From IMG/VR virus record IMGVR_UViG_2698536480_000008: a stretch of DNA of 15,191 nt. The stretch is one strand, 5' to 3'. Position numbers and translations under genes: made by a program. This document shows, piece by piece, positions 157-15,191 of the stretch. Source of the DNA: a virus. Its lineage: Duplodnaviria > Heunggongvirae > Uroviricota > Caudoviricetes. Within the stretch, counting starts at the first letter, position 1. Each line of letters starts with the position of its first letter. The notes beneath the pieces are model-generated. The model was not told where the DNA came from. It was given only the letters and a program-made list of their open reading frames with translations, and ran no database searches.

Positions 157-415
157 AGCCTGCTTCTCCTTGCCTTTCGGCACGTAAGAGGCTAACCTAC
201 ATGTGCAAAGCATGAAATTGGCCTCAGATTAATGTTAAGCGTCTTGCCGGATGCGTAATGTTAACTGGGGCTTTTCTCTATCTGCCTTTGATGTTCATGC
301 CCGAGGCAGATAGCCTCAAGTATCCGCAGCTATTTGTCTGCTGTTACCACCTACCTGCGCCAATCACTGACTCTACAAAGATCTATCCGCGATAACATTT
401 TGAGTTTAAGAACTT

Positions 416-444
416 TTGCGTACGCACCAAAAGATGCATATACT
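416..444 (+). promoter_or_regulatory. Candidate sigma70 promoter (TTGCGT, 17-nt spacer, TATACT) for the ORF1-ORF2 operon
   Basis: -35 TTGCGT at 416-421, 17-nt spacer, -10 TATACT at 439-444, about 40 nt upstream of a GGAG ribosome-binding site and the ATG at 486. Found by eye; AT-rich DNA yields chance matches. Confidence 0.4.
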
Positions 445-485
445 AGACTAGTCATAGTTCTAATCTGCTTGATTATGGAGTCAGG

Positions 486-1544
486 ATGAGTTTCCTTTCT
501 GAACAAGACGTACAAAATTTAGTCATTAATAAAATGATCTTTCACGTTGTAGGTAAGAATCTTGAAGCACCGACACTTCTCAAAGAAATAAAACCAGTTC
601 AGCATGTGGATTTTTTTCTTGAACGTATCAAATCTTCACTGAAAGGAAATCTTTTCACTTTTCTGGAGAATTCAAATACCGAAAGAATCCTGCGTATCAT
701 TAGAGATAAAGCAGATGCTGAAGCTAATTGTTTTACAGAACAATCGAAGCTACTGGCCAGTGATTTTCAGTCACACCATTCTAGCGGTAACACGAGTATG
801 GGATGCTTTTTCTTATTTGAATTGGTTTCAGATAAGGAAAAATTCTATGCAATTATAAAATACGATAATGAAGATGTGGTTCGTTATGTTCTTGACGAAA
901 AGTTATCTGAAGAACAAATGCCTACTTTAGAAAGATTTCATGAAACTTTCGTAAAAAAAGCTGAGGCAATGCAAAAAATAGCGTTAATTCAACTTGATCC
1001 AAGTGGGAAAGGCGGGAAAGTTATTGTAAAAGACAGGAGTAAAAGAACCAATATTTCAGGATATTTTAAAGGCTTCTTAAATGTTAAAAGAGTCAACTCT
1101 GAAATTGAACTTTGCAATAAGCTTATTGATGCGCTGAAAATAACCTTCAAAAGGCATAAAGAATTATTGCCAGAGTCAATTCAAAAAAGCGGCGTAAATA
1201 AAATATATGAAGTTTTAAGCAGAGCTGATTTCGAATATAATCCTGAAGATGCTTCTCCGTTATTGACCAGCATTTTTGGGCCGTTAGATGAAAAATCACC
1301 AATTCTCAACACATTCAAAACTCAAACAAAAAATGCTGGTATTGAAGGCGAATCCTTTACTATAAAAGCAGATGGCATTCATAAACCACCAAGACGAAAA
1401 ATTGAAACTGCAGAAAGTGTAGTAATTAGTTATAATGAAGATGACCGTCCAGAAATAAGAAACTTAGATGATGGGCGAAAACAAATTATTGTTACTACTG
1501 CGAGGATTATTACTGATGACATCGATACTTCAAAAAATCGATGA
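486..1544 (+). CDS. Hypothetical soluble protein, 352 aa; possible distant NA37/NdpA(YejK)-like nucleoid-associated DNA-binding fold; first gene of the candidate cargo operon
   Basis: ATG at 486 preceded by GGAG (477-480); uninterrupted 352 codons in ~35% GC DNA; no hydrophobic segments. Local resemblance to YejK as remembered (GCFFLFELV vs GGFVLFCHY; GYFKGFL vs DFFMDFL; N-terminal I.H.. pattern). The 3' end overlaps ORF2 by 29 nt. Confidence 0.7.
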   Translation: MSFLSEQDVQNLVINKMIFHVVGKNLEAPTLLKEIKPVQHVDFFLERIKSSLKGNLFTFLENSNTERILRIIRDKADAEANCFTEQSKLLASDFQSHHSSGNTSMGCFFLFELVSDKEKFYAIIKYDNEDVVRYVLDEKLSEEQMPTLERFHETFVKKAEAMQKIALIQLDPSGKGGKVIVKDRSKRTNISGYFKGFLNVKRVNSEIELCNKLIDALKITFKRHKELLPESIQKSGVNKIYEVLSRADFEYNPEDASPLLTSIFGPLDEKSPILNTFKTQTKNAGIEGESFTIKADGIHKPPRRKIETAESVVISYNEDDRPEIRNLDDGRKQIIVTTARIITDDIDTSKNR

Positions 1545-2949
1545 GTCTATACAGGCGTCAAGGAAAGACCCTGAATTTTTGGCATCAGAATCAATAAAAA
1601 ATGATTCTGCGCGCGTTCTAATTTCTGCCAAAATGGACAAAGATGCACTCATTCTTTGGCAGTACGTTTACGAAAACGTACCAAATTGGATTGAAATTAC
1701 TGTTAAAGATGACTGTAATGATGAAGTAAAACCATCGTCATGCAGTGAAGGTGATAAACTTAACATTACGCTAAAATGCATTGCATTCGAAAATAACAGG
1801 TATATTTTTACGCTCGAAGGGTGGAATGTTTTTCTACACAATGATGATTTAGTATCAATAACCAATAAAGTGAATATTCTCGGTTTGAAACATGGATTTG
1901 AAACTTTAGGATATTCTGTTGAGCCATGGAACCATGCTCCAGAAAAAATTGAACCTAATGAAACCGTACGAACTTCAATCAATTTACAGAGCTACGTTAA
2001 ATTCTATTCTAGTGAGTTCATGCCTGCATCTGATATAGCTCCTTGGGTACTTTATAAAATGCCTGAGGCAGAGGACAACTTTTTCAAAAAATGGTTACAA
2101 GTTTCCTGCAATATGCTTTGTCGCACTCTCGTTAATGAATTATTAGCAGATGAAAAGAAATCAATTTGTTTAACTGGAAAGCCACCAAAAAAATTAATTT
2201 ATGGAGATCCAGACATTCTGCTTTCCGACTATTCAGTTTTACAAACTGTAATAAACTGGATCTTTATTGAGGGCAATGAGATTGAACTCAAACATACTTT
2301 CTTCACAAGTGAGTTAGCACGAGAATGGCCAGAGTATGTATCCTTCTGTGAGGGTTTACCAAAAAAACTCCCTATGGCCTTTGAGTCAGCAAAATTACTA
2401 TATAAGGCCCACATTCGCGCTAGCAGCAGAGAGACTATTAAATCTCTGTCCGATCTAAGGAAAACCTTAGCTGAAGACACGCAAAAAATAATAAGTCAGT
2501 CTAAAGACATCACATCCGCTCTTTGGAAAGATCTGGCTCTGGTTATAAGTCTATTTGCAATAAAATATGCGCTAGACGCATCAAAGATTAATATAACCAA
2601 TAACATATTCCCATATATGTTCTTCGCGTTATCTATATATATTTTTATATCTCAGGTTACAACTCTCTTCATAAATAAAAATTACTTTAAGATACTTGAT
2701 AATACTAGGCTAGTCTGGAGAGATAAACTATATGGTTTTCTTGATGATACTGACTATGAGAATCTTGCAGTCACACCATTAAGAGAGGCATACAAAGCTT
2801 ATCAGATTATAGCCACATTCGTTGTGATTCTGACTTTGCTGATTTCATTTATAATGATCATATTAGGATTCTCAATGCTTGATGAACATGCTACGAATGC
2901 AATTACCTCTTGGCTCAGTTCTCACTTAATCAATAGTTACTGTAGTTAA
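1516..2949 (+). CDS. Hypothetical membrane protein, 477 aa: ~360-aa N-terminal soluble domain plus two to three C-terminal transmembrane helices; candidate effector
   Basis: ATG at 1516 with GAGGA (1502-1506) 9 nt upstream, overlapping the ORF1 stop (translational coupling). The six-frame track begins at 1468 but that start has no ribosome-binding site. Strongly hydrophobic segments NIFPYMFFALSIYIFISQVTTLFI and YQIIATFVVILTLLISFIMIILGFSML, plus a weaker LALVISLFAIKYAL. No recognisable catalytic motif. Confidence 0.7.
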   Translation: MTSILQKIDESIQASRKDPEFLASESIKNDSARVLISAKMDKDALILWQYVYENVPNWIEITVKDDCNDEVKPSSCSEGDKLNITLKCIAFENNRYIFTLEGWNVFLHNDDLVSITNKVNILGLKHGFETLGYSVEPWNHAPEKIEPNETVRTSINLQSYVKFYSSEFMPASDIAPWVLYKMPEAEDNFFKKWLQVSCNMLCRTLVNELLADEKKSICLTGKPPKKLIYGDPDILLSDYSVLQTVINWIFIEGNEIELKHTFFTSELAREWPEYVSFCEGLPKKLPMAFESAKLLYKAHIRASSRETIKSLSDLRKTLAEDTQKIISQSKDITSALWKDLALVISLFAIKYALDASKINITNNIFPYMFFALSIYIFISQVTTLFINKNYFKILDNTRLVWRDKLYGFLDDTDYENLAVTPLREAYKAYQIIATFVVILTLLISFIMIILGFSMLDEHATNAITSWLSSHLINSYCS

Positions 2950-2976
2950 TTTAAGGCGAGAGAAACTCGCCTTAAA
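2950..2976. terminator. GC-rich stem-loop between the convergent ORF2 and Q-like gene stops; possible bidirectional terminator or RNA-stability hairpin, non-canonical
   Basis: tttAAGGCGAG-agaaa-CTCGCCTTaaa: an 8-11 bp perfect stem with a 5-nt loop, flanked by T3 upstream and A6 downstream on the plus strand. Neither transcript gets a proper U-tract immediately 3' of the stem, so intrinsic termination is uncertain. Confidence 0.35.
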
Positions 2977-2979
2977 AAA

Positions 2980-3498
2980 TCAACGGTAATAGATACAACC
3001 TGCAATAAATCCCATTGCCATTTGCATTTTTTTCCTTATTTTACCATCTGAACATTCGTTTATCTTAGCTAAACAACGCAATGAAACTCCCATAACAAAA
3101 TGAGCGATAATTAACTCATAGTCATCTATCCTATATTGTTTAAGCCTCAACATGCAGGTATCAATTATACCCCCTTCATCATTGCTGCACTGACGACGTG
3201 ATTTTTTACCATGAGGAACAACATTTTTATATTTATCAGCTATTTCCTGCCAATCAATAGAACTATTTTCAGCTACAGCCCAGGCTCCCCAACCGTCCAA
3301 AATATCATATATATTAGCATTGCTATCTACCTGTTTTTTATATTCTTTTTTGAAGCGCGCAAGAAGCATCCTAGCCATCGTTATTATTTCTATACTTGTA
3401 ACTGATTCATAAGCATCAGGAGAAATAATTCTCCCATCACTTAATGCCCCATCACTAAGATTTGCTATTTCCAATAATCGTTCTTTAGTTATTTCCAT
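2980..3498 (-). CDS. Phage antitermination protein Q homologue (Q82/Q933W-type, Phage_antitermQ-like C-terminal domain) with a ~60-aa N-terminal extension
   Basis: Minus-strand ORF. The ATG at 3498..3496 has GGAG 6 nt upstream; the track start at 3510 is a GTG. The C-terminal ~115 aa carry motifs I recognise from Q of Stx phages: WGAWA, SRRQC..DEGGIIDTCMLRLK, Y.LI..HFVMG.S, CSDGKI.K. The gene is AT-rich (~35% GC), unlike the backbone. Confidence 0.55.
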   Translation of the reverse strand: MEITKERLLEIANLSDGALSDGRIISPDAYESVTSIEIITMARMLLARFKKEYKKQVDSNANIYDILDGWGAWAVAENSSIDWQEIADKYKNVVPHGKKSRRQCSNDEGGIIDTCMLRLKQYRIDDYELIIAHFVMGVSLRCLAKINECSDGKIRKKMQMAMGFIAGCIYYR

Positions 3499-3658
3499 TA
3501 TTATCTCCACCGCCTTTTCGGGCGGCCTCCTGATGATTTGAGAGTGCAGGAATTCCTCCGATTAAGGACTCTATTTTATTCACAGTGCTGAATTTAATTA
3601 TTCAGATTTGGATTATGCTTTCTCTTTCACTTCACCAAGTTCCGATTATTAATTTGGC

Positions 3659-4081
3659 TCACAACAGCACCTCTTGAAAGTTTCCCCGATAAAACGCCAG
3701 TACACGCTGCATAACTTCTCTTTTACGGCACTCACTACAAATTATATTATGACGCCTGTCGTAACGACGTATTTCTCCGTCAGATAACGAGCAGATAAGG
3801 TCAGGATCAACCATAACCGGTTCCTTCGACTTTGCACTCGAGAGTTTTTTGCTGGCGTTTTGCCAGTCTTTACGTGCCTGCTCAGACGGGAATAACCCGT
3901 AGCCAGAGTTGTATACGTAACCACTCGAAACCAGCTCTTTGGCGAGAATACTTATCAGATATCTGGTTGCCCCTGTTTTAGCTTCCAGTTGTCGTAACGT
4001 CTCTCGCTCACTCTGGCGTACGAGATCAACAATCTGCCCTTTAATTTTTTCTCGCTCTTCCTGTGTTAATACTTTTGCCAT
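3659..4081 (-). CDS. Hypothetical prophage protein, 140 aa, with a Cys/His-containing C-terminus
   Basis: ATG at 4081..4079 preceded by a strong GGGGAGGG ribosome-binding site; the track start at 4147 has none. Sits 16 nt downstream of the preceding gene on the same strand. No motif recognised. Confidence 0.5.
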   Translation of the reverse strand: MAKVLTQEEREKIKGQIVDLVRQSERETLRQLEAKTGATRYLISILAKELVSSGYVYNSGYGLFPSEQARKDWQNASKKLSSAKSKEPVMVDPDLICSLSDGEIRRYDRRHNIICSECRKREVMQRVLAFYRGNFQEVLL

Positions 4082-4097
4082 AAGCCCTCCCCTAGAA

Positions 4098-4859
4098 TCA
4101 CTTTTCCGACACAATACGACTGGAGGAATCGACAATCTGACGGACAATATCCTGGTGCTTGTTCAACTCACGCAGCGCGGCGCAGACACGCTCCCACTTC
4201 TGGACATGATTTTTCGCCCGACGCAGTTCGCGGTTTGCCATATGCAGTGATGGTAAAACCAGGTCATCCGCTCGCGTTTCAGTAAACGATGGCAGCGACT
4301 GCACAATGTCCGCCACAGTTTCTGTTTTAATATCTTCCTGTGTTGCAGCCTCCTGTACTGGTAACGCAACACCTGCGGTCTGAGGAAAGGCCTTACCATC
4401 AGTTTCCGCTACCGATGCTGCTTTCGGCTCTGCTGGTAAATTATCGCCCGGTATGCAGTAACGAAATTTACCGCCCTGATTTACGCGAATCAGACGACCT
4501 TTGCTGATTGCCATTGCCAGCGTTGAAGCCACTTTGCGTGATGTGGTACCAAACAATGTAGCCAGCTCATCAGCCGTTTGTGGTCCTCGTTGTTCAATCG
4601 TCGCGGTTAAATCGCACTCTGAGATTTTCGCTACTGTTGCTGTGGTGATTTCTTCCGGCAGTTCTGCCTGCGCTGGCTGTTCCTGCTGAACATTGTTATC
4701 AGCCACACGCCAGGTGTACGCGCTTTTATCAACAAAACCAGCCTTTTTCAGTTCCCATAGTTCGTTCAGCACTTCTTCACGACTGATATCAAGTCGCGCA
4801 GCAAGTTCTATGGATGTGGCTTTTCCCATTGCTTTCAGTGCGTCAAAAACAGTCTCCAT
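4098..4859 (-). CDS. Hypothetical prophage protein, 254 aa; possibly a full-length counterpart of the YdaW-type protein that follows ydaV in Rac
   Basis: ATG at 4859..4857 with a GGGAG ribosome-binding site, 22 nt downstream of the ydaV stop. N-terminus [43 protein letters not shown] looks like a winged-helix domain. Family assignment from memory is uncertain. Confidence 0.55.
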
Positions 4860-4881
4860 TAAATTTTTCTCCCGGTAAAAA

Positions 4882-5628
4882 TTACTTCGCAATTCCTGGC
4901 TGGACGACATTCGGACGCCAGCTCTCCCAGTTAAAATTCACCCATCGCCCGCCGTTCATGGTCATGCGATCCATAATCCGCTCGCCGAGCAATGTTTTCA
5001 TGGCCTCATAGTTCAGGTTTGTCAGCATCCCCACGCTGCGCATCGACGCTGTCCGGCGATCAACAATCTGGTACAGTACCACCTGCTCGTTTTTCGTCTC
5101 GCGCTGAATGCCAATTTCATCAAGAACCAGCAGATCCACTTCGCACAGTTCCCGCAAAAATTTTTCGCCTGACTGCCCATCGTCATAGCTGGCGTGCAGG
5201 GCACTCATAACATCAGCCACGGTAACCACAATCACTGTCTGACCGTCTTTCAGCAGGCGATTCCCGATAGCTGCCGCTAAGTGGTTCTTCCCGGTACCAG
5301 GTTTTCCGCTGAACGCAAAATTTGTACACCCGGTCATCAGTTCATCAGCGATGGATTTCGCCTGACTCAACGCGTATCGCTGCCCTTCGTTCTGCACCTG
5401 GTAATTCGAAAACGAGCATTTGCGGTGCAATGGCTGGATGCCAGAGCGATTCAGAATTTTTTCCACCCGCAACTGACGATTCTGACGGTTGATCTCCTCA
5501 CAACGTTTCTGGCCTTCGGAAAGTTGCCACTCGCGCCACTCCGCTACCGTCTTGAATGGCGCGGTTACATGTGACGGGGCCAGTCTGCGGATACGTTCAA
5601 GAACATCGCCTGTCGCAATATTTTTCAT
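4882..5628 (-). CDS. ydaV: DnaC/IstB-like AAA+ replication helicase-loader protein, 248 aa
   Basis: Walker A-like [15 protein letters not shown] and Walker B LLVLDEIG. Length and position after the 285-aa replication protein match Rac ydaV. Confidence 0.85.
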
Positions 5629-5634
5629 GGTCAG

Positions 5635-6492
5635 TTACCCCCTGAAGCCTGGCGGGATCGCACTATCCGGTAACGAGACGGTGTTAACCTGTCGGAGTAA
5701 CGTCTCAGGTCGAACACCTTTCGGCGCGAACAAGCCCTGGTATTCATTGGCGATGCTGTGTCGAATCACCTGCTCAGGTGAAAAACCCTGCTGGCGGAAT
5801 TTTTCCAGCTCCCGTATCGCCCCGTTAGCGCCCTGCTCCGTTCGAATCGGTTTTCGCAATGCCTGGCGAAATTCAACCCACTCACGCCAAAGCGAGACAG
5901 AAATCCAGTTCGGCAAAGTAATATCCAGAGGGTCAAACTTTTTGACACCTCGATTCCCCCGGGGGGGATTTAGGGGGGGATCTGTTTTTAGATCTTTATC
6001 TGTATCTTTATTAGTTGCCTTTGTGTTGACATCATGTTCAAACACCACTTCAACATCTGTTTGAACACCTGTTAAATTTCTCTCTTGTTTTGTTTGAACA
6101 TCTGCTTCCTTTCTGCTTCTTCTGGCCTGAACAGATGCTTTTCCTGCGGCTGATTTTTTGGTTAATTTTTCCCTGACTGATGCCAGATCTTCCTCAATCC
6201 GAAGATGCACCCATTCCTCGCCGTTATCGCAAAAAAACTCCTGCAAGGATGGTTCAACATCAGCCCATCGCTCGTTAGTCAGACGGGCAATTTTTGCCAG
6301 CCTGTTTTTAGGTATTGGCTTTCCTGTTTGCCAGTAATTGAACATCAGCAACAAATACGCACCATGCTCCTCTGCTGACAAATGCATGGTGTCAGCCAGG
6401 TAATCAGCTATGTACAGTTGCATGTATGGTAATGCGGCCATAATTGCCCCGTATGATGCTGCCCGGTGGCTTAGAATAAGCACAAACAGCAT
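5635..6492 (-). CDS. ydaU: Rac prophage replication-initiation-like protein (YdaU/DUF1376 type), 285 aa
   Basis: 285-codon ORF immediately upstream of ydaV on the same strand, with a 6-nt gap. Length and synteny match K-12 YdaU. The annotated start at 6492 has no obvious ribosome-binding site; an internal ATG at 6441 (MAALPYMQLY) is an alternative. Confidence 0.8.
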   Translation of the reverse strand: MLFVLILSHRAASYGAIMAALPYMQLYIADYLADTMHLSAEEHGAYLLLMFNYWQTGKPIPKNRLAKIARLTNERWADVEPSLQEFFCDNGEEWVHLRIEEDLASVREKLTKKSAAGKASVQARRSRKEADVQTKQERNLTGVQTDVEVVFEHDVNTKATNKDTDKDLKTDPPLNPPRGNRGVKKFDPLDITLPNWISVSLWREWVEFRQALRKPIRTEQGANGAIRELEKFRQQGFSPEQVIRHSIANEYQGLFAPKGVRPETLLRQVNTVSLPDSAIPPGFRG

Positions 6493-6504
6493 GGAAACTT
6501 TTGC

Positions 6505-6630
6505 TTAATGAACAATGACAGAATCGTCGGAAGAACCGCCGCCGCTGAAATGCGCTTTCCGGTAAACGGCTTGGACTGCATCATCATGCGCATCAATTGC
6601 CGTACTTAACGCTTCCTGCGCCGCCAGTAT
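6505..6630 (-). pseudogene. ydaT: 3' remnant of ydaT (last ~40 codons) without a start codon, left by a ydaS-ydaT deletion
   Basis: Minus-strand frame ending at the TAA at 6507..6505 translates to ...LAAQEALSTAIDAHDDAVQAVYRKAHFSGGGSSDDSVIVH*, matching the YdaT C-terminus as I remember it. Upstream of about 6630 the frame runs into the ydaS ORF in another frame. Confidence 0.45.
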
Positions 6631-6826
6631 CAGGACGAAGTTCTTCGCACAGAACCTCACCTCTTGTTGCACGTTCAATTGCTGGACATCTCTCGGCAGG
6701 CAATTGACGTACCCCTTTGATCCATTGATTTACGCTTGGAGGTGATACACCTAAAAGCCTAGCCATTGCTGATTGCCCACCGACAACAGCACAAGCTTGC
6801 TTGAATGAATAGTTCTCTTTTTTCAT
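6593..6826 (-). CDS. ydaS: Cro-like helix-turn-helix regulator, 77 aa, probably C-terminally altered by a deletion
   Basis: ATG at 6826..6824 with a GGAG ribosome-binding site. MKKENYSFKQACAVVGGQSAMARLLGVSPPSVNQWIKGVRQLPAERCPAIERATRG is a Cro/CI-type HTH, divergent from racR. K-12 YdaS is ~98 aa by memory; here it ends early in ...TGGAGSVKYGN. Confidence 0.7.
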   Translation of the reverse strand: MKKENYSFKQACAVVGGQSAMARLLGVSPPSVNQWIKGVRQLPAERCPAIERATRGEVLCEELRPDTGGAGSVKYGN

Positions 6827-6949
6827 CGAATGAACTCCAAAAACACACAGAAATATTAGGCGACGCCTAACGCAATTGTCAATAGGCTGTGCCTAATGCG
6901 GTAAGGGTAGGGATTGCCTAATGTAATGCGCATAGGAGAATATTAAGCA
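6827..6949. promoter_or_regulatory. Divergent ydaS/racR promoter-operator region with TTAGGC-type palindromes
   Basis: Perfect 15-bp palindrome TTAGGCGACGCCTAA (6855-6869), inverted repeat TAGGCTGTGCCTAA (6883-6896), a further GCCTAA half-site (6916-6921), and the 13-bp motif ATTGTCAATAGGC (6875-6887). Lies between the divergent start codons of a repressor/Cro pair. Confidence 0.55.
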
Positions 6950-7426
6950 ATGCTTAGTGGTAAAGACTTAGGCCGAGCGATAGAGCAGGCCATTAACAAA
7001 AAAATCGCATCGGGATCCGTCAAATCAAAGGCGGAGGTCGCACGCCACTTCAAAGTCCAACCACCATCAATTTATGACTGGATTAAGAAAGGCTCTATAA
7101 GTAAAGATAAACTTCCAGAATTATGGCGTTTCTTTTCTGATGTTGTTGGTCCAGAGCATTGGGGGCTTAACGAATACCCCATACCAACCCCCACCAATTC
7201 AGATACAAAAAGTGAACTTTTAGATATAAACAACCTTTATCAAGCAGCCTCTGATGAAATAAGAGCGATTGTAGCTTTCCTGTTATCTGGAAATGCTACA
7301 GAACCAGATTGGGTTGACCACGATGTTCGCGCCTACATAGCAGCGATGGAAATGAAAGTGGGTAAGTATCTGAAAGCTCTAGAATCTGAACGGAAAAGCC
7401 AGAACATCACAAAAACTGGAACTTAA
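6950..7426 (+). CDS. racR: Rac prophage repressor, 158 aa
   Basis: ATG at 6950 with an AGGAG ribosome-binding site (6934-6938); 158 aa with an N-terminal HTH (KAEVARHFKVQPPSIYDWIKKG). Divergent from the Cro-like gene; length matches RacR. Confidence 0.85.
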   Translation: MLSGKDLGRAIEQAINKKIASGSVKSKAEVARHFKVQPPSIYDWIKKGSISKDKLPELWRFFSDVVGPEHWGLNEYPIPTPTNSDTKSELLDINNLYQAASDEIRAIVAFLLSGNATEPDWVDHDVRAYIAAMEMKVGKYLKALESERKSQNITKTGT

Positions 7427-7499
7427 ACTTATATGGTCTGACGGAAAACTCCTGGATTCCGTTATTTAACCCCCCCATCACTTTCTGCTGTCGCCATCA

Positions 7500-7560
7500 C
7501 CTATTAGGTTACGCTCAAAACATTAGGCATAGCCTATTGACAATCAATTAGGCATTACCT
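7500..7560. promoter_or_regulatory. Second operator-like cluster downstream of racR and upstream of ydaG, sharing motifs with the ydaS/racR operators
   Basis: TTAGGCATAGCCTA inverted repeat (7523-7536), TTAGGC at 7549-7554, TTAGGT at 7505-7510, and GCCTATTGACAAT (7532-7544), which is the exact reverse complement of the 13-mer at 6875-6887. Confidence 0.35.
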
Positions 7561-7734
7561 ATAGTTCCAGCATACCACCCACCCCGCCCCACAGAACGCC
7601 GGGCAATACTTCGAGTTACCAGGCAGTGGTAAGGGGTTAAGTAGCCAGCCCGAGGCGTATGAACATGACGGCGGGATTCAAATTTTGCAGTGCAGCAGTT
7701 AGTTCCGCCACCCGGCGTTAAGGGGAGAGATAAG

Positions 7735-7869
7735 ATGGTGCATTACGAAGTAGTTCAGTATTTGATGGATTGTTGCGGTATCACTTACAACCAGGCTGTG
7801 CAGGCTTTACGCAGCAACGACTGGGATCTCTGGCAGGCAGAAGTCGCTATACGTAGCAACAAGATGTGA
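7735..7869 (+). CDS. ydaG: Small Rac prophage protein, 44 aa
   Basis: ATG at 7735 with a GGGGAGAG ribosome-binding site; MVHYEVVQYLMDCCGITYNQAVQALRSNDWDLWQAEVAIRSNKM. Below the ORF-track size cutoff; position (racR-proximal) and length fit ydaG. Confidence 0.6.
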   Translation: MVHYEVVQYLMDCCGITYNQAVQALRSNDWDLWQAEVAIRSNKM

Positions 7870-7879
7870 GATTCGCAAA

Positions 7880-8035
7880 ATGCAAAAAATCGACCTCGGC
7901 AACAACGAATCCCTGGTGTGCGGCGTGTTCCCCAACCAGGATGGAACGTTCACTGCCATGACGTATACCAAAAGCAAAACATTTAAAACCGAAACTGGTG
8001 CGCGCCGATGGTTGGAGAAGCACACAGTAAGCTAA
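7880..8035 (+). CDS. ydaF: Small Rac prophage protein, 51 aa
   Basis: ATG at 7880; MQKIDLGNNESLVCGVFPNQDGTFTAMTYTKSKTFKTETGARRWLEKHTVS. Its stop overlaps the convergent sieB stop. Position (sieB-proximal) and length fit ydaF. Confidence 0.6.
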   Translation: MQKIDLGNNESLVCGVFPNQDGTFTAMTYTKSKTFKTETGARRWLEKHTVS

Positions 8036-9804: not shown

Positions 9805-12405
9805 ATGAGCACAAAACCACTCTTCCTGTTACGGAAAGCGAAAAAATCATCCGGTGAACCTGACGTCGTCCTGTGGGCAAGCAACGATTTTGAATCGACC
9901 TGTGCCACTCTGGACTACCTGATCGTTAAGTCAGGTAAAAAACTGAGCAGCTATTTTAAAGCTGTTGCCACGAATTTTCCTGTCGTTAATGACCTGCCCG
10001 CTGAAGGTGAGATCGATTTTACCTGGAGTGAACGCTATCAACTCAGCAAAGACTCCATGACATGGGAACTAAAACCGGGAGCAGCACCAGACAACGCTCA
10101 CTATCAAGGCAATACCAACGTCAACGGCGAAGACATGACTGAGATTGAGGAGAATATGCTACTCCCAATTTCTGGCCAGGAACTGCCCATTCGTTGGCTT
10201 GCTCAACACGGCAGCGAAAAACCGGTAACGCACGTTTCACGCGACGGACTCCAGGCATTACACATTGCTCGGGCTGAAGAACTACCGGCTGTTACTGCCC
10301 TGGCTGTTTCCCACAAAACCAGCCTGCTCGACCCGCTGGAAATTCGCGAACTCCACAAACTGGTTCGTGACACTGACAAAGTTTTCCCTAATCCTGGTAA
10401 TTCAAACCTGGGACTGATAACTGCTTTTTTCGAAGCATACCTGAACGCTGACTACACCGATCGAGGAGTGCTGACAAAAGAGTGGATGAAGGGTAATCGT
10501 GTTTCACACATCACTCGCACGGCTTCCGGTGCTAATGCTGGCGGCGGAAACCTCACCGATCGCGGCGAAGGTTTCGTACACGATCTGACGTCACTGGCGC
10601 GCGACGTAGCCACTGGCGTACTGGCCCGTTCAATGGATCTGGACATCTATAACCTTCATCCGGCACACGCTAAACGCATTGAGGAAATTATCGCTGAAAA
10701 TAAACCGCCCTTTTCTGTTTTCCGCGACAAATTCATCACCATGCCTGGCGGGCTGGATTATTCCCGCGCCATCGTGGTTGCGTCCGTAAAAGAAGCACCA
10801 ATTGGGATCGAGGTCATCCCCGCGCACGTCACTGAATATCTGAACAAAGTACTGACTGAAACCGATCATGCCAACCCTGATCCGGAAATCGTGGATATTG
10901 CCTGCGGTCGCTCCTCTGCCCCGATGCCGCAGCGAGTAACAGAAGAAGGAAAACAGGATGATGAAGAAAAACCGCAACCATCTGGAACAACGGCAGTTGA
11001 ACAGGGAGAGGCTGAAACAATGGAACCGGACGCAACTGAACATCATCAGGACACGCAGCCGCTGGATGCTCAGTCACAGGTAAATTCTGTTGATGCGAAA
11101 TATCAGGAACTGCGGGCAGAACTCCATGAAGCCCGGAAAAACATTCCATCAAAAAATCCTGTCGATGCCGATAAATTGCTTGCTGCATCACGTGGTGAAT
11201 TTGTTGACGGAATTAGCGACCCGAACGATCCGAAATGGGTAAAGGGGATCCAGACTCGCGATTGTGTGTACCAGAACCAGCCAGAAACGGAAAAAACCAG
11301 CCCAGATATGAATCAACCTGAGCCAGTAGTGCAACAGGAACCGGAAATAGCCTGCAATGCCTGCGGCCAGACTGGCGGGGATAACTGCCCTGACTGTGGT
11401 GCGGTGATGGGCGACGCAACATACTAGGAAACATTCGATGAAGAGAGTCAGGTTGAAGCTAAGGAAAATGATCCGGAGGAAATGGAAGGCGCTGAACATC
11501 CGCACAATGAGAATGCTGGCAGCGATCCGCATCGCGATTGCAGTGATGAAACTGGCGAAGTCGCAGATCCCGTAATCGTAGAAGACATAGAGCCAGGTAT
11601 TTATTACGGAATTTCGAATGAGAATTACCACGCGGGTCCCGGTATCAGTAAGTCTCAGCTCGATGACATTGCTGATACTCCGGCACTATATTTGTGGCGT
11701 AAAAATGCCCCTGTGGACACCACAAAGACAAAAACGCTCGATTTAGGAACTGCTTTCCACTGCCGGGTACTTGAACCGGAAGAATTCAGTAACCGCTTTA
11801 TCGTAGCACCTGAATTTAACCGCCGTACAAACGCCGGAAAAGAAGAAGAGAAAGCGTTTCTGATGGAATGCGCAAGCACAGGAAAAACGGTTATCACTGC
11901 GGAAGAAGGCCGGAAAATTGAACTCATGTATCAAAGCGTTATGGCTTTGCCGCTGGGGCAATGGCTTGTTGAAAGCGCCGGACACGCTGAATCATCAATT
12001 TACTGGGAAGATCCTGAAACAGGAATTTTGTGTCGGTGCCGTCCGGACAAAATTATCCCTGAATTTCACTGGATCATGGACGTGAAAACTACGGCGGATA
12101 TTCAACGATTCAAAACCGCTTATTACGACTACCGCTATCACGTTCAGGATGCATTCTACAGTGACGGTTATGAAGCACAGTTTGGAGTGCAGCCAACTTT
12201 CGTTTTTCTGGTTGCCAGCACAACTATTGAATGCGGACGTTATCCGGTTGAAATTTTCATGATGGGCGAAGAAGCAAAACTGGCAGGTCAACAGGAATAT
12301 CACCGCAATCTGCGAACCCTGTCTGACTGCCTGAATACCGATGAATGGCCAGCTATTAAGACATTATCACTGCCCCGCTGGGCTAAGGAATATGCAAATG
12401 ACTAA
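9805..12405 (+). pseudogene. recE: recE (exonuclease VIII) interrupted by an in-frame amber codon at codon 541 (TAG 11425-11427); otherwise a full-length 866-codon frame
   Basis: The 540-aa ORF (9805-11427) and the 307-aa ORF (11482-12405) are in the same frame, separated only by the TAG and 18 sense codons ([18 protein letters not shown]); 540+1+18+307 = 866, the RecE length. The downstream part holds the RecE nuclease domain and ends in ATGACTAA, overlapping the recT start. Confidence 0.85.
11482..12405 (+). CDS. recE: Possible C-terminal RecE fragment (307 aa, complete exonuclease domain) if translation reinitiates or the amber is suppressed
   Basis: In-frame ATG at 11482, but GGAGGA sits only 1 nt upstream, so initiation is doubtful. 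The fragment covers the C-terminal region known to suffice for RecE nuclease activity. Confidence 0.3.
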
Positions 12406-13207
12406 GCAACCACCAATCGCAAAAGCCGATCTGCAAAAAACTCAGGGAAACCGTGCACCAGCAGCAGTTAAAAATAGCGACGTGATTAGTTTTATTAACC
12501 AGCCATCAATGAAAGAGCAACTGGCAGCAGCTCTTCCACGCCATATGACGGCTGAACGTATGATCCGTATCGCCACCACAGAAATTCGTAAAGTTCCGGC
12601 GTTAGGAAACTGTGACACTATGAGTTTTGTCAGTGCGATCGTACAGTGTTCACAGCTCGGACTTGAGCCAGGTAGCGCCCTCGGTCATGCATATTTACTG
12701 CCTTTTGGTAATAAAAACGAAAAGAGCGGTAAAAAGAACGTTCAGCTAATCATTGGCTATCGCGGCATGATTGATCTGGCTCGCCGTTCTGGTCAAATCG
12801 CCAGCCTGTCAGCCCGTGTTGTCCGTGAAGGTGACGAGTTTAGCTTCGAATTTGGCCTTGATGAAAAGTTAATACACCGCCCGGGAGAAAACGAAGATGC
12901 CCCGGTTACCCACGTCTATGCTGTCGCAAGACTGAAAGACGGAGGTACTCAGTTTGAAGTTATGACGCGCAAACAGATTGAGCTGGTGCGCAGCCTGAGT
13001 AAAGCTGGTAATAACGGGCCGTGGGTAACTCACTGGGAAGAAATGGCAAAGAAAACGGCTATTCGTCGCCTGTTCAAATATCTGCCCGTATCAATTGAGA
13101 TCCAGCGTGCAGTATCAATGGATGAAAAGGAACCACTGACAATCGATCCTGCAGATTCCTCTGTATTAACCGGGGAATACAGTGTAATCGATAATTCAGA
13201 GGAATAA
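12398..13207 (+). CDS. recT: RecT single-strand annealing recombinase, 269 aa
   Basis: ATG at 12398 overlapping the recE stop; [35 protein letters not shown]... matches RecT. The track start at 12341 is an upstream extension. Confidence 0.9.
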
Positions 13208-13263
13208 TTCAGCCTGGCGGTGTAATGCACCGCCAACTTGAAATATTTTTTATGAGAAAAATT

Positions 13264-13458
13264 ATGAGATATGACAATGTTAAACCATGTCCATTTTGTG
13301 GTTGTCCATCAGTAACGGTGAAAGCCATTTCAGGATATTACCGAGCGAAGTGTAACGGATGCGAATCCCGAACCGGTTATGGTGGAAGTGAAAAAGAAGC
13401 ACTCGAAAGATGGAATAAACGAACCACTGGAAATAATAATGGAGGTGTTCATGTATAA
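13264..13458 (+). CDS. ralR: RalR (Lar) restriction-alleviation protein / type I toxin DNase, 64 aa
   Basis: MRYDNVKPCPFCGCPSVTVKAISGYYRAKCNGCESRTGYGGSEKEALERWNKRTTGNNNGGVHV from the ATG at 13264; Cys4 zinc-ribbon pattern; located between recT and ydaC. Confidence 0.8.
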   Translation: MRYDNVKPCPFCGCPSVTVKAISGYYRAKCNGCESRTGYGGSEKEALERWNKRTTGNNNGGVHV

Positions 13459-13660
13459 AATTACCGCCACTATTGAAAAGGAAGGTGGCACTCCTACTAA
13501 CTGGACAAGATATTCAAAATCTAAACTAACGAAATCAGAATGCGAAAAAATGCTCTCAGGTAAAAAAGAAGCAGGCGTTTCCAGAGAGCAGAAAGTAAAA
13601 CTGATAAATTTTAATTGCGCGAAACTTCAGTCCTCGAGAATTGCATTGTATTCAAATTAA
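13451..13660 (+). CDS. ydaC: Rac prophage protein YdaC, 69 aa
   Basis: ATG at 13451 with a GGAGGT ribosome-binding site (13441-13446), overlapping the ralR 3' end by 8 nt; MYKITATIEKEGGTPTNWTRYSKSKLTKSECEKMLSGKKEAGVSREQKVKLINFNCAKLQSSRIALYSN. Confidence 0.75.
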   Translation: MYKITATIEKEGGTPTNWTRYSKSKLTKSECEKMLSGKKEAGVSREQKVKLINFNCAKLQSSRIALYSN

Positions 13661-13671
13661 AACTTCATAGC

Positions 13672-13687
13672 TGATTATTAATAATCA
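13672..13687. promoter_or_regulatory. Perfect 16-bp palindrome TGATTATTAATAATCA upstream of xisR/intR
   Basis: Read directly; lies in the 78-bp gap between ydaC and xisR, about 50 bp upstream of the xisR start. Candidate protein-binding site controlling excision/integration genes. Confidence 0.3.
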
Positions 13688-13738
13688 ACATCGGGCGTCA
13701 ATTTCAGTCTAACATTGGCGCCTGCCAGAGGTGATGCG

Positions 13739-13954
13739 ATGGCACAAGTAATCTTTAATGAAGAGTGGATGGTTGAATACGGCCTGATGCTTCGCACTGG
13801 TCTGGGGGCCAGACAAATTGAAGCATACCGCCAGAACTGTTGGGTGGAGGGCTTCCACTTCAAACGAGTATCTCCTTTAGGTAAGCCAGACAGCAAACGA
13901 GGGATTATCTGGTACAACTATCCAAAGATAAATCAGTTTATCAAAGACTCATGA
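13739..13954 (+). CDS. xisR: Excisionase-like protein (XisR/YdaQ), 71 aa
   Basis: ATG at 13739 with an AGAGG ribosome-binding site; [71 protein letters not shown]. Immediately upstream of the integrase, with the stop 1 nt before the intR ATG. Confidence 0.8.
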
Positions 13955-13955
13955 T

Positions 13956-15191
13956 ATGTCTAAATTACCAACAGGTGTCGAGATTAGAGGTAGATACATT
14001 CGCATCTGGTTCATGTTTCGAGGAAAACGATGTCGGGAAACATTAAAAGGCTGGGAGATTACAAACAGTAATATTAAAAAGGCCGGAAATTTAAGAGCGC
14101 TGATAGTTCATGAAATAAACTCCGGTGAATTTGAGTATTTAAGACGTTTTCCCCAGTCCAGCACTGGGGCAAAAATGGTGACAACGAGAGTCATAAAAAC
14201 GTTCGGAGAGCTTTGTGATATCTGGACAAAAATTAAAGAGACAGAGTTAACAACAAACACAATGAAGAAAACGAAATCACAATTAAAAACACTCAGAATA
14301 ATAATTTGTGAAAGTACCCCGATATCACATATTCGTTATAGCGATATCTTAAACTACCGGAATGAACTGCTGCATGGAGAAACGCTTTACCTGGATAATC
14401 CAAGATCCAACAAAAAAGGAAGAACCGTGCGCACAGTTGATAACTATATCGCCCTGCTCTGTTCGCTGTTGCGTTTTGCGTATCAGTCGGGATTTATATC
14501 AACCAAACCATTTGAAGGAGTAAAAAAATTACAGCGAAACAGAATAAAGCCTGATCCGTTATCTAAAACAGAATTCAATGCATTAATGGAAAGTGAAAAA
14601 GGACAGAGCCAGAACTTGTGGAAATTTGCCGTTTACTCAGGACTTCGTCACGGGGAACTGGCAGCTCTGGCGTGGGAGGATGTGGATCTCGAAAAGGGAA
14701 TAGTGAATGTCAGAAGAAACCTGACGATACTTGATATGTTCGGTCCCCCAAAAACAAATGCCGGGATCCGAACAGTAACACTACTGCAGCCTGCTCTTGA
14801 AGCACTGAAGGAGCAATACAAACTGACCGGGCATCATCGCAAAAGCGAAATCACCTTTTATCATCGGGAGTACGGCAGAACCGAAAAGCAAAAACTGCAT
14901 TTTGTTTTCATGCCCAGGGTGTGTAACGGAAAACAAAAACCTTATTACTCGGTAAGCAGTTTGGGGGCAAGGTGGAATGCAGCAGTAAAACGTGCTGGTA
15001 TTCGCCGCCGTAATCCGTACCATACGCGGCATACTTTTGCCTGCTGGCTGTTGACGGCAGGAGCGAACCCGGCATTTATAGCCAGCCAAATGGGGCATGA
15101 AACTGCGCAGATGGTGTATGAAATTTACGGTATGTGGATTGATGACATGAACGACGAACAGATAGCCATGTTGAATGCGCGGTTATCGTAG
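13956..15191 (+). CDS. intR: Tyrosine site-specific integrase, 411 aa
   Basis: Full ORF with catalytic-domain motifs (RHGELAALAWEDVDL; HTRHTFACWLLTAG; YEIYG). Length and sequence match Rac IntR. The window ends at its stop codon, so the attachment site lies outside. Confidence 0.9.
   Translation: MSKLPTGVEIRGRYIRIWFMFRGKRCRETLKGWEITNSNIKKAGNLRALIVHEINSGEFEYLRRFPQSSTGAKMVTTRVIKTFGELCDIWTKIKETELTTNTMKKTKSQLKTLRIIICESTPISHIRYSDILNYRNELLHGETLYLDNPRSNKKGRTVRTVDNYIALLCSLLRFAYQSGFISTKPFEGVKKLQRNRIKPDPLSKTEFNALMESEKGQSQNLWKFAVYSGLRHGELAALAWEDVDLEKGIVNVRRNLTILDMFGPPKTNAGIRTVTLLQPALEALKEQYKLTGHHRKSEITFYHREYGRTEKQKLHFVFMPRVCNGKQKPYYSVSSLGARWNAAVKRAGIRRRNPYHTRHTFACWLLTAGANPAFIASQMGHETAQMVYEIYGMWIDDMNDEQIAMLNARLS

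Follow-up and report, generated by a model that had tools for sequence, protein, structure and literature searches.

Two-gene defence systems that pair a nucleoid-associated protein (NAP) with an effector have recently been described under the name PANGU; their operons encode a YejK-like NAP and an effector, are spread over phyla by horizontal transfer and are found near defence genes (Li et al. 2026, bioRxiv 10.64898/2026.04.06.716658). In type II PANGU, the NAP (Pag2A) is paired with a protein, Pag2B, that carries an acidic, DNA-mimicking N-terminal 'DMK' domain and a C-terminal transmembrane domain, and a type II system of E. coli acts by abortive infection against T4, for which both genes are needed. 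No toxicity is seen for either gene by itself or for the two together, and PagA is an activator. Pag2A binds the N-terminal domain of Pag2B with a dissociation constant (KD) of 19 nM and departs from the nucleoid upon T4 infection, and T4 escape mutations fall in denA, although the authors state that the route from Pag2A to Pag2B activation is unresolved (bioRxiv 10.64898/2026.04.06.716658). A related arrangement is DS-1, composed of a zinc-ribbon-YejK protein (DS-1A, WP_000355468.1) and a transmembrane protein (DS-1B, WP_000150292.1), which is anti-phage when expressed from its native promoter in MG1655 (DeWeirdt et al. 2026, PMC13092281). Here we examine a two-gene cassette in a 15,191-nt stretch of Caudoviricetes DNA (IMG/VR record IMGVR_UViG_2698536480_000008; hereafter the window, with position 1 its first letter), made up of two open reading frames (ORFs) on the + strand, ORF1 (486-1544) and ORF2 (1516-2949). 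The cassette is carried as cargo by a Rac-like prophage and, by analogy with the systems above, likely acts against phages through abortive infection, as a two-gene system of the 'NAP sensor + effector' class, PANGU-like and of type II architecture. This architecture is already published, and the pair joins a recently described kind or is possibly the same operon.

The two proteins and their co-inheritance

ORF1 encodes a protein of 352 aa (PGAP accession WP_001586997.1, named 'nucleoid-associated protein') that matches Pfam NA37 (PF04245), the YejK/NdpA family of nucleoid-associated proteins of 37 kDa, with an E value of 1.2e-12 and 48.3 bits (cut-off 24.6). The match spans residues 18-335 and model positions 1-316 of 325, and PF04245 was present in all 79 ORF1 homologues except one partial sequence. 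When the AlphaFold2 (AF2) model of ORF1 (pLDDT 83) was compared to the PDB with Foldseek, the top match was E. coli YejK (9be2; E 5.3e-8, probability 1.00, approximately 15% identity), which was also the only match at E <= 0.001; the TM-scores of 0.39-0.41 are consistent with differing domain orientations. Hydropathy analysis revealed no hydrophobic segment, a sequence search of the PDB with the ORF1 family profile gave no match, and PHROGs places ORF1 in phrog_1974, labelled 'unknown function'. By family and by modelled fold, ORF1 is a YejK-family (NA37) NAP, and by analogy with PagA it is presumed to be the DNA-bound sensor of the pair.

The 477-aa product of ORF2 (PGAP accession WP_046788432.1, 'hypothetical') could not be assigned to a family by Pfam, NCBIfam, PHROGs or PADLOC, the NCBIfam search returning sub-threshold noise only. 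A Saf_2TM match, which would have indicated a CBASS-type effector, scored 14 bits (cut-off 29.5), occurred in one of 41 family members and was attributed to chance. The AF2 model of ORF2 (pLDDT 86.7, pTM 0.70) consists of an alpha/beta domain (residues ~1-250) followed by helices at 277-302, 305-355, 364-404, 411-454 and 457-476; it has no specific fold match in the PDB, and a PDB sequence search with the ORF2 family profile likewise gave none. Two hydrophobic cores detected by hydropathy near the C-terminus (~365-388 and ~430-455) fall within the long model helices 364-404 and 411-454, and the most conserved stretch of the protein is the juxtamembrane helical region at ~250-340. Over the first 300 residues the net charge is -12, and the corresponding charge is negative in all 52 family members considered (median -11). 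From this layout, ORF2 is presumed to be the partner or effector, with a soluble acidic N-terminal domain and a predicted C-terminal helical membrane module. Relatives of ORF2 form 101 clusters of 27-84% identity, all of ~465-500 aa and all annotated 'hypothetical', and an exhaustive profile search enlarged the family to 662 clusters at 50% identity.

Among species-representative genomes we identified 67 loci with an ORF2 homologue, and at every one of them an ORF of the ORF1 family lies directly upstream on the same strand with an inferred overlap; a first-pass annotation of the window had proposed checking whether homologues of the pair co-occur in other defence islands. These loci come from Enterobacterales, Methylococcales, Rhizobiales, Sphingomonadales, Acetobacteraceae, Pseudomonas, Burkholderiales and one Terriglobus; over several bacterial orders the pair is kept, with its junction maintained, down to ~22-25% identity (tblastn best segment). 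For example, three distant relatives, from E. coli/Citrobacter (42%), Methylomonas (36%) and Sphingomonas (32%), all have an NA37 gene directly upstream, with an overlap of 29 nt in the first two and 32 nt in Sphingomonas. The close family of ORF1 occupies largely the same taxa as the ORF2 family and is the more conserved of the two (mean identity of 38% vs 30%). Judged from these sequences, ORF1 and ORF2 are an obligate unit that is strictly co-inherited.

The pair is also carried on mobile DNA outside of Rac. It is present in a temperate Thiobacimonas phage, near a CI/Cro gene, and on ten plasmids, and elsewhere it adjoins integrases; chromosomal islands that have no phage or plasmid genes nearby carry it as well. 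The largest flanking ORFs include integrases, N6_Mtase/MmeI, Mrr_cat, AAA_15/AAA_21, SMC_N, AbiJ_NTD3 and PLDc_2, in addition to RES, Fic, DUF4917, IS1, IstB and RepB, such that some neighbours bear domains typical of restriction-modification, abortive infection (Abi) or toxin-antitoxin genes. Just downstream of the pair in the Sphingomonas locus (~10000-15100) are genes for an RNase_T-like exonuclease, two unannotated proteins, a Multi_ubiq protein and a DUF6791-ThiF protein, a cluster that possibly constitutes a defence system based on ubiquitin-like conjugation.

Public contigs with the exact protein number 815 for ORF1 and 638 for ORF2. Although the two proteins are unrelated, they are filed in a single 90%-identity cluster of 386 members, presumably through a fused or partial call across the 29-nt overlap, and cluster-based counts for either protein are thus to be read with care.

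Comparison with PANGU, DS-1, RexAB and Kiwa

The authors of PANGU defined the NAP as a protein of at least 300 aa with a hidden Markov model (HMM) E value below 1e-10 and required a spacing of under 40 bp between adjacent genes (bioRxiv 10.64898/2026.04.06.716658). At 352 aa and an E value of 1.2e-12, obtained with the Pfam NA37 model rather than the authors' HMM, ORF1 lies within these limits, as does the spacing of the genes, which overlap by 29 nt here and overlap at all 67 loci; the hydrophobic helices of ORF2 correspond to the C-terminal transmembrane feature of type II. The window operon thus resembles PANGU type II in being bicistronic, in pairing a YejK-like NAP of ~350 aa with a partner that has an acidic N-terminus and a C-terminal transmembrane region, in its occurrence in E. 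coli, in its horizontal spread over phyla and in having defence genes among its neighbours. This likeness is one of described architecture, since sequence comparison was made with DS-1 only, and the operon may be the same as the tested PANGU-Ecu, a 'Cluster 2' homologue or a separate cluster of a NAP and a transmembrane protein.

DS-1 shares with the window pair the gene order (NAP gene first, transmembrane gene second), a single transcription unit and the E. coli host. In addition, DS-1A matches Pfam NA37, and DS-1B has an acidic N-terminus (net charge -9 over residues 1-260) and a hydrophobic C-terminal end. The systems differ in that DS-1A begins with a zinc-ribbon (CxxC...CxxC) and its NA37 region starts at residue 64, whereas ORF1 lacks this extension, and in that the DS-1 genes are 2 nt apart rather than overlapping by 29 nt. 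Homology between ORF1 and DS-1A was rejected, as nothing beyond the shared Pfam family was detected (BLASTP E 3.5; hhalign 0.3%), and homology between ORF2 and DS-1B was rejected as well (BLASTP E 0.21; hhalign 0.24% for family against single sequence and 0.46% for family against family). Because no homology of ORF2 to DS-1B was detected, at least two unrelated families of transmembrane partner appear to exist for YejK-like proteins in Enterobacteriaceae. The study that described DS-1 also lists the exact ORF1 protein, WP_001586997.1, in DefensePredictor Table S10 as a predicted, untested defence gene with a log-odds of 8.42, where the strict cut-off is 4 (PMC13092281). A main-text literature search for the two WP accessions returned nothing, ORF1 being found only in these DefensePredictor supplements.

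RexAB of lambda is a prophage-borne two-gene exclusion module that combines a soluble DNA-binding protein with a membrane protein. The window pair is alike in being a prophage-borne combination of a soluble and a membrane protein, and a RexAB-like pair occupies the same hok-Q slot in a related prophage, on the same strand and with similar GC content (see below). The proteins themselves are unrelated in sequence: ORF1 belongs to NA37 and not to DUF6731, and ORF2 is a 477-aa protein with a large soluble domain rather than a small polytopic RexB. Neither ORF1 nor ORF2 had a PADLOC RexA or RexB match at E <= 1, and Pfam detected no DUF6731 in them.

Kiwa likewise joins a membrane protein (KwaA) to a DNA-binding partner (KwaB), but the membrane protein of Kiwa is considered the sensor, whereas in the window pair the NAP is the presumed sensor. 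KwaB (9mtn_K) ranked third among the structural matches to ORF1, with an E value of 0.07 and a TM-score of 0.23, and no PADLOC Kiwa model matched; Kiwa was rejected accordingly. Finally, E. coli YejK (9be2) shares the Pfam family and fold of ORF1 but is a stand-alone chromosomal housekeeping gene, whereas ORF1 invariably accompanies ORF2 and travels on mobile DNA.

These comparisons revise the first-pass annotation in part. It had called the operon one of unknown function, which no longer holds for ORF1, a clear member of Pfam NA37, and had proposed it as a candidate undescribed defence module, a description overtaken by the publication of PANGU type II and DS-1 and by the listing of ORF1 in DefensePredictor Table S10. 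Its failure to match either protein to Kiwa, Rex or the CBASS effectors was confirmed by profile searches. Of the profile and Foldseek searches that it had recommended for both proteins, those with ORF1 led to an assignment (NA37; YejK 9be2), while those with ORF2 gave neither a family nor a PDB fold. Its central proposal, a soluble DNA-binding sensor that works with a membrane partner in defence or abortive infection, fits the present evidence indirectly, by way of the YejK family, the co-inheritance of the genes, their carriage on mobile elements, the neighbours with restriction-modification, Abi or toxin-antitoxin domains and the Rex-like slot.

The hok-Q interval and the state of the prophage

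The prophage that carries the cassette is Rac. To the left lie the hok toxin gene (1-156, - strand; Hok/Gef by PGAP) and the sok/hok leader (151-325, - strand; Rfam sok RF01794, 99.4 bits), which together form the conserved left flank of the slot. To the right, and convergent with ORF2, is a Q-family antiterminator gene (2980-3510, - strand; Pfam Phage_antitermQ E 1.3e-33, also called by PGAP) of 176 aa by ORF or 172 aa by PGAP, which is context and lies outside the system. Past Q follow DUF977, DUF1627, ydaV/U/T/S, racR, sieB, kilR, recET, ralR, xisR and intR.

A related prophage in E. coli strain E1620 has the same flanks, with hok/sok (hokD) 90.8% and Q 88% identical to those of the window. 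Homology between the two prophages stops at 335 and resumes at 3010, which defines a swapped segment of 336-3009 whose right edge (~3009) is inside the 3' end of the Q gene. In place of this segment the E1620 prophage carries a 1.7-kb + strand cassette (its 3287-5006) with 36% GC. The first gene of this cassette encodes a DUF6731 protein (Pfam E 2.2e-12), and DefensePredictor Table S5 pairs DUF6731 with the DefenseFinder label RexAB~RexA (PMC13092281). The second encodes a protein of 159 aa with a weak RexB match (PADLOC E 0.0015). The presence of a RexAB-like pair between the same flanks indicates that the hok-Q interval is an exchange slot, and it seems to accommodate exclusion systems as cargo. 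Both alternative cassettes are antisense to the early-right operon of the prophage, which runs in the direction from ydaS to Q.

Among 5,426 complete E. coli genomes the window cassette is rare and near-clonal, being present in 29-30 genomes, all at >=99.8% identity, and the same Q gene adjoins it in every copy; a related Q gene is present in 416 genomes. Two of these copies are damaged (NZ_CM146015.1, strain H20, and NZ_CM143909.1, strain H45): one has an IS5-like element of the ISKpn26 family inside the stretch that matches 440-2980, and in another an IS1-associated deletion leaves only the last ~470 nt of ORF2, with the late region also lost. The prophage of the window shows damage of its own. 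Compared with the otherwise 99.9%-identical Rac prophage of strain 13E0767, it lacks 415 bp (~6625-6629), a deletion that takes most of ydaT and the sequence as far as the start of the cro-like ydaS, indicating that the early/immunity region is damaged. Furthermore, recE (9805-12405) has an in-frame TAG at codon 541 (11425-11427) where strain 13E0767 has CAG, which splits it into an ORF of 540 aa and, through a possible restart, one of 307 aa (11482-12405).

The boundaries of the two cassette genes agree with most of what had been read from the letters at first pass. Coordinates and hydropathy agree with a soluble ORF1 of 352 aa and an ORF2 of 477 aa with C-terminal transmembrane helices, and the position in Rac between hok/sok and Q is supported jointly by PGAP, Rfam and Pfam. 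Although the longest form of ORF2, of 493 aa, would start at 1468, PGAP uses the ATG at 1516, which is preceded by a ribosome-binding site (GAGG, 1502-1505) and agrees with the N-terminus of 41 ORF2 homologues (consensus MxSILxKI). As read from the sequence, the ORF1 stop codon at 1542-1544 produces the 29-nt overlap (1516-1544, + strand) that had been reported and that is conserved in relatives; it is compatible with translational coupling of the two genes. The ribosome-binding site of ORF1 is GGAG at 477-480, within an upstream region (336-485, + strand) that extends from the left cassette edge and comprises the untranslated leader of ORF1 and its presumed promoter. The reported contrast of ~35% GC with a backbone of ~50% was also reproduced, ORF1 and ORF2 having 33.7% and 35.1% GC against ~48%; the region 400-3600 as a whole has 34.9%, compared with 48.2% for 3659-8000 and 48.5% for 1-400. 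What the initial annotation did not contain is that this AT-rich block extends over the convergent Q gene (34.8% GC).

The sigma70-like promoter that it had assigned to the operon did not hold up. A promoter scan returned no site above threshold upstream of ORF1, and the best candidate found by eye (TTGCGT-17-TATACT, 416-444), which matches at three of six and five of six positions, was not listed by the scan; moreover, promoter-like sites were no commoner in the region (11 found) than in shuffled sequence (11.5 expected). A hairpin at 2953-2973 (AAGGCGAG-agaaa-CTCGCCTT) separates the stop codons of ORF2 and Q, which converge on it, and has a GC-rich stem of 8 bp, or 11 bp with the flanking T/A pairs. 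On each strand the T-run is found 5' of the stem and none follows it, so the hairpin is not a canonical intrinsic terminator for ORF2 or Q, and a terminator scan neither listed it nor found a canonical terminator.

Two further features of the surroundings were observed. In the full prophage the Q gene is not adjacent to the lysis genes, with hok, DUF1367, DUF1364 and a DUF1133 protein intervening before essD/rrrD. The RalA antitoxin small RNA is found at 13457-13635 (- strand; Rfam 223 bits) and, together with the sok/hok leader (99 bits), brings to two the type I toxin-antitoxin loci present in the window besides the cassette.

Proposed mechanism and alternative explanations

From the analogy with PANGU we infer not only defence activity but also a trigger, an interaction between ORF1 and ORF2 and an effect on the membrane, and we hold the individual steps with less confidence than the defence function itself. 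In a healthy cell ORF1 would sit on the host chromosome or nucleoid. An infecting phage that degrades the host nucleoid would release ORF1, and the free protein could then bind the acidic cytoplasmic N-terminal domain of ORF2, whose helical membrane module would in turn compromise the membrane, such that the infected cell and the phage are stopped together.

Several results weigh against assigning the cassette to anti-phage defence. The published experiments concern PANGU type II and DS-1 and not the ORF2 family, unless PANGU-Ecu is the same operon, and ORF2 showed no detectable homology to DS-1B, the validated transmembrane partner that was compared. PADLOC 2.0 contained no model that matched ORF1 or ORF2 (nor one for Q), and the DefensePredictor list on which ORF1 appears has an overall validation rate of 45% (PMC13092281). 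The acidity of the ORF2 N-terminal domain argues only weakly for DNA mimicry, because net-negative N-terminal domains are common in cytoplasmic proteins. Pairwise identities among the ORF1 homologues closely track those among their ORF2 partners (r = 0.95, with none of 999 Mantel permutations as high), a correlation that fits inheritance as a unit but that shared ancestry alone would also yield. Lastly, the majority of the neighbours at the 67 loci carry no defence label.

Three other explanations deserve consideration. The pair could serve the mobile element itself, for instance with the NAP and a membrane anchor tethering or compacting the element's DNA at the membrane, or silencing it, and thereby governing prophage maintenance, induction or superinfection at the DNA-entry stage. 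Such a function would be in keeping with the role of housekeeping YejK as a chromosome-architecture protein (bioRxiv 10.64898/2026.04.06.716658, introduction), with the antisense orientation of the cassette relative to the early-right operon, which could tie it to prophage regulation, and with the occurrence of the pair on plasmids and phages. Nevertheless, we think it unlikely: chromosomal islands that have no phage or plasmid genes nearby contain the pair too, a RexAB-like exclusion pair is the alternative allele at the slot, and two independent systems of a NAP and a transmembrane protein protected E. coli when cloned alone. Quite improbable, in our view, is a toxin-antitoxin-like addiction module in which ORF2 would be a membrane toxin restrained by ORF1 that stabilizes the element and senses no phage. 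At 352 and 477 aa, the proteins are large for typical toxin-antitoxin components, even though two overlapping genes, one of them for a membrane protein, would suit such a module, as would the adjoining hok/sok, a classic post-segregational killing locus, and the toxin-antitoxin genes found near the pair elsewhere (MazE/PIN, RES, Fic). Moreover, the PANGU single genes and pair are non-toxic and PagA is an activator rather than an antitoxin, and the stronger conservation of ORF1 (38% vs 30%) fits a sensor whose cellular ligand is constrained better than it fits a fast-evolving antitoxin.

The damage to the window prophage, namely the 415-bp ydaT/ydaS deletion and the recE nonsense codon, and the IS5 insertion or IS1 truncation of the pair in other strains could mean that the cassette is decaying or non-functional cargo of a defective prophage and at present serves no purpose in this strain. 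In the window, however, neither ORF is disrupted and both match their counterparts in other strains exactly, the same proteins are found on hundreds of public contigs (815 and 638), and the pair with its junction is conserved to ~22-25% identity over several orders, all of which makes decay very improbable. Each of the three explanations agrees less well than a PANGU-like anti-phage system with the two independent validations of a NAP with a transmembrane protein, with the Rex-like allele and with a gene junction kept intact over deep divergence.

On a more tentative reading, less likely than not, the ORF2 family would represent a third lineage of effectors that serve YejK-like sensors, homologous to neither Pag2B nor DS-1B, and a new PANGU-like subtype of independent origin. 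It is conceivable at the same level of doubt that the hok-Q interval is a dedicated exchange slot for cassettes of a DNA-binding sensor and a membrane effector, and that the antisense early-right transcript could switch these cassettes off upon prophage induction.

If the pair is active, the defences that sense nucleoid integrity would gain a widespread effector family, which comprises hundreds of clusters at 50% identity among Proteobacteria and is carried by at least one genome of the Acidobacteriota, and cryptic Rac-type prophages would supply such a defence to ~0.5% of complete E. coli genomes. The alternation of a RexAB-like pair with a NAP and transmembrane pair between conserved flanks marks a place for cargo in lambdoid prophages that is compact and easy to search, and that could be mined for more exclusion systems. 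The ORF2 fold, confidently predicted and unmatched in the PDB, adds to this interest, and a second or third unrelated transmembrane partner would help to separate the general from the family-specific principles of membrane effectors activated by NAPs.

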